NCBI GenBank assembly: GCA_964579545.1
Contig: CAZOGQ010000001.1
Location: 1 to 39,985 of the forward strand
DNA from: Candidatus Woesearchaeota archaeon
GTDB lineage: Archaea; Nanobdellota; Nanobdellia; Pacearchaeales; GW2011-AR1
Direction: 5' to 3'
Length of the DNA stretch: 39,985 nt
The position numbers and the translations under genes were made by a program. This document shows, in pieces, positions 16,825 to 19,568 of this stretch (the first letter of the stretch is position 1; every line of letters begins with the position of its first letter). The notes beneath the pieces are model-generated. The model was not told the origin of the DNA. It ran no database searches and worked only from the letters and a program-made list of their open reading frames with translations.

Positions 16825-18132
16825 ATGGAAAGAACTTACATTAAGGATATAAAATCAAAAATTGGAGAAGACATAGAAATTAAAGGATTTGTTCATGAAA
16901 TAAGGGATCAGAGTAAAATCAAGTTTATTATAATCAGAGATGTAACTGGGGTTATTCAATGTATTGTTAAACCAGAACAAAAAGAAGTATTTAACGAGAT
17001 TGTGAAAATTCCAAGAGAAAGTGTTTTAAAAATAACTGGAAAAGTAAAATCAAATAAACAAGCTCCTGGAGGAATTGAAATTTTAATTAGGGATTATGAA
17101 GTTCTTTCAAGAGCAGACTCGCCTCTACCAATTCCTGTTATTGAAAAAGGGCAGGAAGTTTCTTTACCAAAAAAATTAGATTATAGGTGGATTGAATTAA
17201 GAAAATCTAAAAATTTGTTAATTTTTAAAATATGGACATTTATGGAAAAAGCAATGAGAGAATATTGGGGTAAAAATAGTTATATTCAAATTTATAGTCC
17301 TAAATTTATGCCATCTCCAAGTGAAAGTGGAGCAGAGTTATTTAGTGTAAATTATTTTGGCAAAAAAGCATATTTAGCTCAGAGCCCCCAGTTTTATAAG
17401 CAAATGGCAATGGCCTCTGGATTTGAGAAAGTTTTTGAAATAGGGCCTGTTTTTAGAGCAAATCCTTCACATACAGTCAGACATGATACAGAGTTTACAA
17501 TGATAGATATGGAAATCTCATATGTTGACTCTCATGAGGATGTAATGAAAGTTGAGGAAGAATGGATTAATTATTTTATTAAAAGAATAAAAGAAGAATA
17601 TGGGGAAAAAATTAAAGAGGTTTTTGATGCTGATGTTAATATTCCTAAACTTCCTTTTCCTAGGTTAACAATGAAAGAAGCTCAAAAATTGCTTAGAAAA
17701 AAAGGGTACAAAGGGCCAAAAGATGATTTAGATGCAGAAGGAGAAAAATTGCTTTGTGAAATTATTAAAAAGAAATTTAATCATGAATTTGTTTTTGTTA
17801 CTGAGTATCCTTGGTCTGCAAGACCTTTCTATCATATGAAGAAAGAAGGAACAAATAACATTACCAAAAGTTTTGATTTAGTTTGTAAAGGAACAGAAGT
17901 TACAACAGGAGCCCAAAGAGAGCATAGATATAGGATTTTAAAAGAACAAGCTAAGGAAAAGAAAATTAATTTAAAACTTATTAAAGATTACTTGAATTTT
18001 TTTAAATATGGGTGCCCTCCACATGGTGGTTTTGCAATTAGCCCTACTAGATTCTTAATGTTATTATTAAATATAAAAAACGTTAGAGAAGTGACTTTTT
18101 TGCCGAGAGATACAGAGAGACTTACTCCGTGA
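16825..18132 (+). CDS. aspS: Aspartyl-tRNA synthetase, archaeal/eukaryal type (predicted non-discriminating)
   Basis: 435 aa. Motifs seen: 'AYLAQSPQFYKQ', 'GPVFRANPSHTVRHDTEF', 'GAQREHRY', 'GCPPHGGFAISPTR' and the C-terminal 'FLPRDTERLTP'. 'GFVHEIRD' and 'KQAPGGIEI' place His and Pro at the positions aligned to T. kodakarensis W26 and K85. Confidence 0.9.
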   Translation: MERTYIKDIKSKIGEDIEIKGFVHEIRDQSKIKFIIIRDVTGVIQCIVKPEQKEVFNEIVKIPRESVLKITGKVKSNKQAPGGIEILIRDYEVLSRADSPLPIPVIEKGQEVSLPKKLDYRWIELRKSKNLLIFKIWTFMEKAMREYWGKNSYIQIYSPKFMPSPSESGAELFSVNYFGKKAYLAQSPQFYKQMAMASGFEKVFEIGPVFRANPSHTVRHDTEFTMIDMEISYVDSHEDVMKVEEEWINYFIKRIKEEYGEKIKEVFDADVNIPKLPFPRLTMKEAQKLLRKKGYKGPKDDLDAEGEKLLCEIIKKKFNHEFVFVTEYPWSARPFYHMKKEGTNNITKSFDLVCKGTEVTTGAQREHRYRILKEQAKEKKINLKLIKDYLNFFKYGCPPHGGFAISPTRFLMLLLNIKNVREVTFLPRDTERLTP

Positions 18133-18170
18133 GTTAAAAATATTTAAGAATATTACTTTATGAGAAGAAA

Positions 18171-19568
18171 ATGGAAAACGTACACAAAACAGATTTTCGC
18201 ACACATACATGCGGCGAACTACGAAAAAAAGATATGAACAAGAAAGTCACGCTCTGTGGTTGGGCAAATACAGTAAGAGAACATGGCAAGTTAATTTTTA
18301 TTGACTTGCGTGATAGATATGGAATAACTCAGATTGTTTGTAGAGATATTGCTGAGGCGAAAAAAGTTGCTCTTGAGACAGTTATGCAAGTTAAAGGTCA
18401 GGTCAAGGAACGAAAAAAAGGAACAGAAAATAAAAATCTTACAACTGGCGAAATTGAAATTCTCGCAAATGAAATCAAAATACTTACAAAAGCAGCTAAA
18501 CTTCCTATCCAGGTAAATAAAAATGAAGCTGTTGATGAAAATACAAGACTTAAGTATAGATTTTTAGATTTAAGAAGACCAGAAATGCAAAAAGCTCTTG
18601 ACTTTAGAAATAAAGTTATTATTGCTGCTCGTGAATATTTTGAGCAGCAAGAGTTTATTGAGGTTGAAACACCTATCTTAGTTAAACCAACACCAGAAGG
18701 TGCAAGAGATTACATTGTGCCGAGCAGAGTAAACCCTGGCAAGTTTTATGCTCTTCCTCAAAGTCCACAGCTTTACAAACAGATTTTAATGATCGCTGGT
18801 TTTGACAGATATTTTCAAATAGCAAGATGTCTAAGAGATGAAGACTTAAGAGCAGACAGGCAGCCAGAACACACGCAGATTGATCTTGAAGTTTCGTTTG
18901 TAACAGGAGAAGATATTATGAAAATTGTAGAAGGAATGTATAAACATATTTTTAAAAAAGTCCTAGGCATTGAATTAAAAATACCTTTTCCACGTTTGAC
19001 ATATAAAGAAGCAATGTCAAAGTATAGAACAGACAAGCCAGATATTCGCAAGAACAAAAAAGACAAAAAAGAATACGCATTTTGTTGGATTTATGATTTT
19101 CCTCTTTTCGCTTATAATAAACAAGAAAAAAAATGGGAACCAGAACATCATATTTTCAGTTCACCAAAACAACAAGACATTAAACTTCTTGATACAGACC
19201 CAGGAAAAGTAAAAGGAGCATTATTTGATATTGTTTTGAATGGCAGTGAACTTGGCTCTGGCTCTATACGTATTAATGATCCTGAACTTCAAGAAAAAGT
19301 TATGAAAATTATTGGCTTGTCAAAAAAAGAAGCATATAAAAAATTCGGCTTTCTCTTAGATGCTTATAAATACGCTGGACCGCCACATGGGGGCATGGGA
19401 CTTGGCCTTGATAGACTTATTGCAATAATGCTTGGTTATTCTGACATAAGAGAAGTAATTGCATTTCCGCGAAATAAGGCTGCTCAAAATCCAATGGATG
19501 ATTCTCCTTCGGAGATTTCAAAACAGCAGCTTGACGAGGCACATATTTCTCTGAAAGGGAAGAAATAG
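18171..19568 (+). CDS. aspS: Aspartyl-tRNA synthetase, bacterial type, lacking the GAD insertion domain
   Basis: 465 aa. Motifs seen: '[36 protein letters not shown]', '[11 protein letters not shown]', '[27 protein letters not shown]' and '[14 protein letters not shown]'. '[26 protein letters not shown]' replaces the usual insertion of about 130 aa. Confidence 0.9.
   Translation: [465 protein letters not shown]

Follow-up and report, generated by a model that had tools for sequence, protein, structure and literature searches.

A tandem of archaeal-type and GAD-less bacterial-type aspartyl-tRNA synthetase genes, both predicted to be non-discriminating, in the amidation gene cluster of a woesearchaeotal contig

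Why should an archaeon keep two aspartyl-tRNA synthetase (AspRS) genes of different types next to each other? The question is raised by a contig of 39,985 nucleotides from a Candidatus Woesearchaeota archaeon (CAZOGQ010000001.1, assembly GCA_964579545.1), the whole of which is referred to here as the window, and in which two class IIb AspRS open reading frames (ORFs) lie head-to-tail on the forward strand. The first, aspS1 (16825..18132, 435 aa), is of the archaeal/eukaryal type and the second, aspS2 (18171..19568, 465 aa), is of the bacterial type; the spacer between them (18133..18170, + strand, sequence read directly) measures 38 nt. An original prediction, made from the sequence and its ORFs, had described this arrangement, and the coordinates, the strand and the motifs that it quoted are all present. 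We consider it moderately probable that the pair encodes two functionally overlapping non-discriminating AspRS (ND-AspRS), which would both feed the amidotransferase GatCAB, and that the tandem represents the co-residence stage of an in-situ gene displacement.

The assignment to two types rests on curated profiles, which split the two proteins. The product of aspS1 scored 513.9 bits against NF003483 (aspartate--tRNA(Asn) ligase, cut-off 353) and 413.4 bits against TIGR00458 (cut-off 368.4), compared with 213.7 bits for the bacterial model. That of aspS2 reached 677.9 bits, in two stretches, against NF001750 (bacterial aspartate--tRNA ligase, cut-off 443) and 635.6 bits against TIGR00459 (cut-off 373.85), compared with 255.9 bits for the archaeal model. 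The predicted structure of the aspS2 protein agrees (see below), and the claim of two AspRS types in tandem thus stands. Pfam recognizes an OB anticodon-binding domain and a class II core in both proteins (in aspS1, PF01336 at residues 18-94 and PF00152 at 116-429, with no GAD domain), and the active-site motifs of both align with those of solved enzymes. The alignment of aspS1 with 3nel, 1b8a and 1n9w runs end to end, its closest solved relatives being the AspRS of Thermococcus kodakarensis (1.9e-97) and AspRS2 of Thermus thermophilus (6e-92). Relaxed constraint or a recent foreign origin of either gene was also considered and rejected: departures from clade-conserved columns are ordinary (three in aspS1, with a median of two among relatives; five in aspS2, with a median of four), and both the GC content at third codon positions (GC3) and codon usage are native for the two genes and uniform over their junction, neither gene being a compositional outlier.

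In one respect the second gene departs from its own type. Its ORF is complete, as had been stated of both genes, but its bacterial-type architecture is not: at 465 aa the protein is about 120 aa short for a bacterial-type AspRS, a deficit that the original prediction overlooked, and the missing part is the GAD domain (no match to PF02938). The bacterial profile, 590 positions long, hits the protein in two pieces and skips positions ~297-420, and the alignment to 6wom covers chain residues 6-300 and 425-587 (of 592) while the query advances from 295 to 298 across the jump. At this junction (19032..19088, + strand) an 8-residue linker, KNKKDKKE, replaces some 115-125 residues. The GAD insertion lies between motifs 2 and 3 and the whole of it is absent from aspS2. 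The catalytic motifs, including QSPQ and PPHGGxGxGxDR, are intact, and the bacterial C-terminal extension has been retained, the alignment continuing to residue 587 of 6wom. An AlphaFold model of the protein, built with 42 homologs, had a predicted local distance difference test score (pLDDT) of 81 and a predicted template modelling score (pTM) of 0.75, with pLDDT values of 91-96 over residues 281-310, where the junction lies. When this model was compared with known structures using Foldseek, bacterial AspRS came at the top with TM-scores of 0.73-0.80, and archaeal AspRS gave 0.61-0.63.

The GAD-less form is by no means confined to the window. Among the top 120 database homologs of aspS2, 91 lack the domain (411-478 aa, plus one of 612 aa), and the named ones are labelled Woesearchaeota, Pacearchaeota or Nanoarchaeota. 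The other 29 contain GAD, show 62-65% identity and bear the same archaeal labels, one of them coming from a single-cell genome (L011; related loci are cited here by such numbers). A scan of a genome collection with aspS2 recovered three loci, all GAD-containing, and a metagenome scan with the GAD-less junction as the query returned at least 581 matching stretches. The linkers that stand in place of the domain are of three types, an 8-residue KNKxDxxE, a 6-residue xETxxD/K and xAExPW. In a bootstrapped neighbour-joining tree, the GAD-containing sequences nest beside the subclade of the window, with divergent GAD-less clades placed outside and the deep branches poorly supported, a topology that could reflect either several deletions of the domain or a long-branch artefact. 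Because the GAD-less form is common in Woesearchaeota/Pacearchaeota-type archaea, aspS2 is not a recent foreign gene but belongs to a GAD-less bacterial-type AspRS long established in a lineage of this kind. A horizontal acquisition from bacteria or the Candidate Phyla Radiation, one of the origins proposed earlier, would hold only in deep time; as a recent import it is contradicted by the hundreds of archaeal relatives, the conserved archaeal neighbourhood and the native codon usage.

Two further observations concern the bacterial-type family at large. A GAD-containing member, 59% identical to aspS2, is encoded at 9971-11740 of L009, on a 277-kb contig from a metagenome-assembled genome (MAG) with the label uncultured Methanosarcinales; either the bacterial type is more widespread among archaea or the contig was misbinned. 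In addition, three independent bacterial-type homologs carry a C-terminal YbaK/ProX-type editing domain (PF04073, ~100 bits each), namely P0013 (residues 480-599), P0118 (residues 611-729) and the protein encoded at 9821-12196 of L010 (residues 661-779). One of these fusions is GAD-less and two have GAD, and they come from DPANN-labelled or environmental contigs; the combination of an AspRS with a trans-editing-type domain is unusual.

Which tRNAs would the two enzymes charge? For aspS1 the original prediction had aligned by eye a His with W26 and a Pro with K85 of T. kodakarensis AspRS, positions that we take to be tRNA specificity sites because the changes W26H and K85P reportedly relax that enzyme to accept tRNA-Asn. 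A HMMER alignment to 3nel and 1b8a, ungapped around both sites, proves that reading correct: the residues are His24 (codon 16894..16896, + strand) and Pro81, in the L1 loop (codon 17065..17067, + strand). This His/Pro signature of non-discriminating enzymes occupies the same columns in T. thermophilus ND-AspRS2 (1n9w) and is present in 87 of the 120 closest homologs of aspS1. Two related genes provide natural controls that fit the His/Pro rule. The L095 gene of the aspS1 clade (hereafter the copy-1 clade) adjoins a bona fide asparaginyl-tRNA synthetase (AsnRS), has no Pro and has a loop four residues longer, and the second archaeal-type paralog of L008 has Ala at the W26 column together with a longer, T. 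kodakarensis-like loop.

The copy-1 clade also has a peculiar motif 2. In aspS1 it reads VFRAN (residues 209-213, 17449..17463, + strand), with FRAN for the canonical FRAE, and so departs from the class II consensus (fRxE) at a position that normally contacts ATP. Since the Asn is conserved in 119 of the 120 closest homologs, FRAN is best read as a clade-defining substitution and not as decay, and the clade as a whole is unusually conserved, with identities of 70-83%. The second archaeal-type AspRS of L096 has a canonical WRAE.

For aspS2 the comparison has to be made with bacterial enzymes. In an alignment to the 4wj3 chain, His38 (codon 18282..18284, + strand) corresponds to His31 of Pseudomonas aeruginosa (Leu30 in Escherichia coli), and Gly84 (codon 18420..18422, + strand) aligns with the anticodon-loop Gly of bacterial ND-AspRS (Lys81 in E. 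coli), which by count on the same chain is residue 82 of the P. aeruginosa enzyme. The His/Gly combination is shared with the ND-AspRS of P. aeruginosa, Helicobacter pylori and Mycobacterium smegmatis, and in the same columns the discriminating enzymes have Leu/Lys (E. coli) or Leu/gap (T. thermophilus AspRS1). These two positions were reportedly the specificity determinants found by Bernard et al. 2006, where the loop Gly is said to be G83.

A natural test of these residues is offered by 80 metagenome loci with a GAD-less aspS, which were scored for the His state and for an adjacent class IIb gene. Nine of them have such a neighbour, and all seven full-length neighbours are AsnRS (NF003037, 471-537 bits, cut-off 414). 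In each of the nine aspS genes adjoining AsnRS (identity confirmed for seven) Gln/Asn or Met/Lys takes the place of His/Gly, compared with His kept in 50 of 54 scorable loci without an adjacent AsnRS. Over all loci the association of His loss with an adjacent AsnRS has a Fisher p = 2e-8, and when only loci whose flanks reach at least 1.5 kb in both directions are counted, His was lost in 7/7 with an adjacent AsnRS vs 0/25 with none. From His38/Gly84 and this covariation it is therefore predicted that aspS2, like aspS1, is non-discriminating and accepts tRNA-Asn. The suggestion that it might be a discriminating partner is not supported: aspS2 has kept both residues, which change in the GAD-less clade only beside AsnRS. 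The same nine neighbours had also been candidates for archaeal-type partners of a GAD-less aspS; as the seven full-length ones proved to be AsnRS, the notion that pairs like that of the window are common was rejected.

The recurrence of the locus in relatives tells more about how the pair may have arisen. The order gatD-gatE-[aspS]-gatC-x-gatA is repeated among them, and it is the content of the aspS slot that varies. Only a GAD-less bacterial-type gene is found in L001, L017, L057 and L070 (L012 and L015 also have a GAD-less aspS with no archaeal-type gene upstream), and only a copy-1 (archaeal) type in L006 and L092. The copy-1 type is joined by a GAD-less bacterial type in the window and in L005, by another archaeal-type AspRS in L008, L093 and L096, and by AsnRS in L095, where the copy-1 type is discriminating-like. 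Finally, a copy-1 ortholog is accompanied by a bacterial-type relic in L097, L098 and L099. The slot of L008 (8001-13097, on a 613-kb contig of GCA_040961015.1) is peculiar in having three class IIb genes in a row, which encode a copy-1-type AspRS (His/Pro), a second archaeal-type AspRS whose residues are discriminating-like, and a divergent, AsnRS-like protein of 480 aa that lies under all curated cut-offs (best AsnRS score 217 bits vs 414).

The relic deserves closer description. L097-L099 are one NCBI MAG and two ENA assemblies in which the copy-1 ortholog (83% identity) follows gatE. Some 80 nt past its stop codon (L097 6756-6860, also in L098 and L099) comes a non-coding stretch of ~100 nt whose translation corresponds to the final 33-35 residues, C-terminus included, of a bacterial-type AspRS without GAD (identity 69-82%, E-values as low as 5e-14); it shares 83% DNA identity over 58 nt with the 3' end of the window aspS2. 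The remnant lacks a start codon and lies behind a stop codon. Its place downstream of a copy-1 ortholog argues that the tandem once existed in this lineage and that the bacterial-type gene, apparently dispensable there, was later deleted. A possible N-terminal relic in L097 (MKDFTYH, resembling the N-terminus of aspS2) was without statistical support, and only the C-terminal one is claimed.

Identities along the cluster are uneven. Between the window and L005 they amount to 83% for aspS1, 53% for aspS2, 61% for GatA and 80% for a partial FtsZ; the aspS2 of L005 has another of the linker types and falls outside a clade with bootstrap 98. The aspS genes of L001 and L006 are 69% and 81-82% identical to their window counterparts, compared with 36-37% for GatD and 42% for GatE, and in L057 and L070 GatD and GatE are closer to those of the window, yet aspS2 is only 47-51% identical. 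This incongruence indicates that aspS genes move between lineages faster than the genes beside them.

As the original prediction had noted for a gatC-like gene and gatA, the pair sits among genes of tRNA-dependent amidation, to which gatD and gatE can be added. The gatD gene (6811..8124, + strand), for the archaea-specific Glu-tRNA(Gln) amidotransferase subunit D, matches NF003217 with 450 bits (cut-off 310) and has Pfam GatD_N and asparaginase domains. Downstream of the pair, the gatC-like gene (21919..22182, + strand, 87 aa) scores 44.4 bits against NF000681, below the cut-off of 64, and has the position of the Pfam-GatC genes upstream of gatA in relatives; gatA itself (22600..23964, + strand) scores 476.8 bits against TIGR00132, slightly short of the cut-off (481.1) but well ahead of all other amidase models. 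Neither gatB nor asnS is present within the 40-kb window; in the relatives L006, L008, L092, L096 and L097 gatB lies beside the cluster. That the host is an archaeon, as had been supposed, is borne out by GatDE, an eIF-1A homolog and best matches labelled Woesearchaeota, Pacearchaeota or Nanoarchaeota, and the window also carries ftsZ and homologs of archaeal translation factors. Archaeal GatCAB is an Asp-tRNA-Asn amidotransferase, encoded when AsnRS is absent (PMC2330236). One sampled locus would, if archaeal, run counter to that rule: L019 (9134-14905) has a GAD-less aspS in the Gln/Asn state, gatA, gatB and asnS in one row, thus combining AsnRS with GatAB.

Subunit E of the cluster is also short of a domain. 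The gatE gene (12210..13661, + strand, 483 aa; NF003107, 487 bits in two stretches) is without the AspRS-like insertion domain (~128 aa), its alignment to 2d6f_C jumping from residue 268 to 397. GatE proteins of similarly reduced size (458-495 aa) are encoded in L001, L006, L008, L017, L057, L070, L092, L096 and L097 as well, and versions with the insertion domain (611-616 aa) in L093 and on the contig of P0078. The insertion domain of GatE has been modelled to clash with a class II ND-AspRS (PMC2330236). Both proteins that normally have a GAD-type domain, the bacterial-type AspRS and GatE, have lost it in the genome of the window.

The substrate of the amidation pathway is encoded in the window too, by a tRNA-Asn(GUU) gene on the reverse strand (36612..36710). 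It scores 29.3 bits with the Rfam tRNA model, just at the threshold, and has the anticodon loop CUGUUAA, a perfect 7-bp acceptor stem and G73 (both read directly). Its D-loop contains an insert of ~25 nt, probably a non-canonical intron, which was located by alignment to the intron-less tRNA-Asn genes near the aspS cluster of L008 (13901-13975) and L095 (13911-13987). ARAGORN misses the gene and, with the insert removed, calls tRNA-Asn.

Around the pair itself some smaller features were seen. Within the spacer, ~25-33 nt before the start codon (ATG) of aspS2, there is a TATA-like box rich in A/T, ATATTTAA. A similar box, TTTATAAA, occurs upstream of aspS1, at a distance of about 25-30 nt, and in the spacer of L005; in a genome of 30% GC such boxes weakly suggest a candidate promoter for each aspS gene. 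Same-strand ORFs of 342, 126, 138 and 125 aa (within 15036..16794 and 19612..19989, + strand) flank the pair with short gaps. A Pfam scan gave no match for those of 342, 138 and 125 aa, none of the four has a homolog in the related loci, and they may have been inserted around the slot in this lineage alone. Between aspS2 and gatC, two small ORFs (21343..21859, + strand; 87 and 83 aa, with a 1-nt gap) resemble a toxin-antitoxin pair, and in L004 and on the P0078 contig a HicAB pair comes after the GAD-less aspS; pairs of this kind could be markers of local gene flux.

In the scheme that we favour, both aspS genes would encode active AspRS with relaxed specificity, each aspartylating tRNA-Asp and tRNA-Asn(GUU) in a genome presumed to be without AsnRS. 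Both would feed GatCAB, and the GatDE of the cluster would make Gln-tRNA-Gln. The resident aspS of the amidation-cluster slot would have been replaced repeatedly, the tandem would place two largely interchangeable enzymes side by side, and in some relatives the bacterial-type gene would since have been deleted. Several points weigh against this scheme. The window is a 40-kb contig, beyond which an asnS, a gatB or a further aspS may lie, and the single-aspS and relic genomes were judged from sampled loci rather than from whole genomes. Residues at the specificity positions are predictors, not proof, of tRNA-Asn charging; single mutations at the two bacterial positions reportedly shift specificity only ~4-fold (according to Bernard et al. 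2006), and the association of His loss with AsnRS corresponds to about three independent transitions in the tree, not nine, a small effective sample. In five of about ten sampled lineages a second AspRS of full length comes immediately after a copy-1-clade gene, a rather high frequency for a transient state, and the copy-1 enzyme could be specialised. Finally, the window and L005 have kept the pair despite a divergence that leaves 61% identity in GatA, and such a pair can therefore persist for long.

The main alternative builds on the frequency with which a second AspRS follows copy-1-clade genes and supposes a division of labour outside the anticodon determinants. The FRAN-clade enzyme would be, for example, a stable transamidosome partner of GatCAB through which tRNA-Asn is channelled, the GAD-less bacterial-type enzyme or any other second AspRS behind it would supply the bulk of Asp-tRNA-Asp, and both would be needed. 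The succession of a copy-1-clade gene and a full second AspRS in the window, L005, L008, L093 and L096 would be expected from it, and so would the unusual conservation of the copy-1 clade with its near-invariant, non-canonical motif 2; moreover, the transamidosome of T. thermophilus AspRS2 is stable, and GAD is thought to affect the dynamics of the complex (PMC3367201, PMC9499178). However, the copy-1 type is the sole aspS of the cluster in L006, L092 and L097-L099, the partner being a relic in the last three, and the bacterial type is the sole one in L001, L017 and others. The partner, moreover, is not always of one kind (it belongs to either of two GAD-less lineages or is archaeal-type), as would sooner be expected of opportunistic co-residence than of co-adapted enzymes, and we regard a division of labour as unlikely, though deserving to be kept in view. 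We give only a slender chance to a further version in which the pair is non-redundant, the laterally spreading FRAN-clade enzyme being a dedicated tRNA-Asn/transamidosome AspRS and the parallel loss of a homologous GAD-type insertion from the bacterial-type AspRS and GatE reflecting an amidation machinery that was remodelled and streamlined in these reduced archaea. If this were true, AspRS could dock on the amidotransferases without the clash modelled for the GatE insertion domain.

Improbable, in our judgement, is a split as in Thermus and Deinococcus, in which tRNA-Asp would be left to the bacterial-type enzyme as a discriminating, housekeeping AspRS and the archaeal-type one would be the ND-AspRS dedicated, with GatCAB, to the tRNA-dependent formation of asparagine. 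The gene content is that of the precedent (bacterial-type and archaeal-type AspRS, with gatC and gatA nearby), aspS1 has its His/Pro signature, and the pairing in L008 of a copy-1 ortholog with an archaeal-type paralog of discriminating-like features shows that discriminating/non-discriminating pairs exist in this group. But His38/Gly84 of aspS2 is the state of characterised bacterial ND-AspRS, replaced in the clade when AsnRS is adjacent, and in L001, L012, L015 and L017 the gat cluster has a close relative of aspS2 (69-73% identity) as its sole aspS, which must therefore serve tRNA-Asn as well; where GatCAB is present and AsnRS was not seen, discrimination would have no selective reason. An artefact, in the form of an assembly or binning chimera of archaeal and bacterial contigs at 18133..18170, has nothing in its favour but the unusual mix of types and can be dismissed as extremely improbable, given that the tandem also occurs in an independent assembly (L005, with a 30-nt spacer) and its relic in three others, that GAD-less bacterial-type aspS genes lie within archaeal gatD-gatE...gatC-gatA neighbourhoods of many contigs, that the single-cell genome with a related GAD-containing bacterial-type AspRS (L011) is one of Nanoarchaeota, and that composition is even over the junction.

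How does this tandem compare with known systems? The precedent invoked in the original prediction, T. thermophilus and Deinococcus radiodurans, holds for gene content (a bacterial-type and an archaeal-type AspRS in one genome, an archaeal copy with His/Pro, and GatCAB subunit genes) but not for the predicted specificities, since aspS2 keeps His/Gly. In contrast to those bacteria, the host here is an archaeon, in which the two genes stand side by side within a gatDE/gatCA cluster, and unlike T. thermophilus AspRS1, aspS2 has no GAD domain and is in the His/Gly state instead of having Leu. The Thermus/Deinococcus-type system also includes AsnRS, with AsnA and AsnB absent; no AsnRS was seen in the 40-kb window. 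With the bacterial ND-AspRS (P. aeruginosa 4WJ3/4WJ4, H. pylori 5GRO, M. smegmatis 4O2D) aspS2 shares the anticodon-binding domain, the core, the C-terminal extension, the His and the loop Gly, but an 8-residue linker stands for the GAD insertion of ~120 residues. The archaeal ND-AspRS/GatCAB pathway, e.g. of Methanothermobacter, is resembled by aspS1, an archaeal-type AspRS to which two equivalog models give the name aspartate--tRNA(Asn) ligase, together with gatC, gatA, gatD, gatE and a tRNA-Asn gene; the differences are the adjacent second AspRS of bacterial ancestry, FRAN for FRAE and a GatE without its insertion domain. In xenologous in-situ displacement a neighbourhood keeps its function and the gene in the slot is replaced by a distant homolog, so that intermediates with both genes and remnants are expected. 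Both a two-gene state and a remnant of the displaced gene are present here; unlike a simple displacement, two deep AspRS types with several lineages each are involved and the direction of replacement is not uniform among relatives.

The GAD domain has been used in one survey as a feature separating bacterial-type from archaeal-type AspRS (PMC4206432). It also separates the bacterial from the archaeal transamidosome and has been proposed to shape transamidosome dynamics (PMC9499178, PMC3367201). In full-text literature searches, neither a bacterial-type AspRS without GAD, nor dual AspRS in DPANN archaea, nor the present arrangement was found described; the proteins themselves can be met with in public databases under the plain name aspartate--tRNA ligase. 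GAD is treated as the hallmark of bacterial-type AspRS. A large natural family without GAD, apparently the sole aspS of the amidation cluster in many genomes, indicates that the domain is dispensable, and while its function is still uncertain these enzymes are ready-made proteins for testing the part of GAD in tRNA release and transamidosome assembly. The covariation of the position-31 and loop residues with an adjacent AsnRS supports, independently and on comparative data alone, determinants earlier defined by mutagenesis of a few enzymes. A single slot that shows one type, the other type, both, or a relic displays with unusual clarity the stages in which an essential gene of translation is replaced. 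For annotation, both genes of the window are probably Asp-tRNA(Asp/Asn) ligases, and a second aspS copy in a DPANN genome should not be counted as evidence of contamination in metabolic reconstructions.

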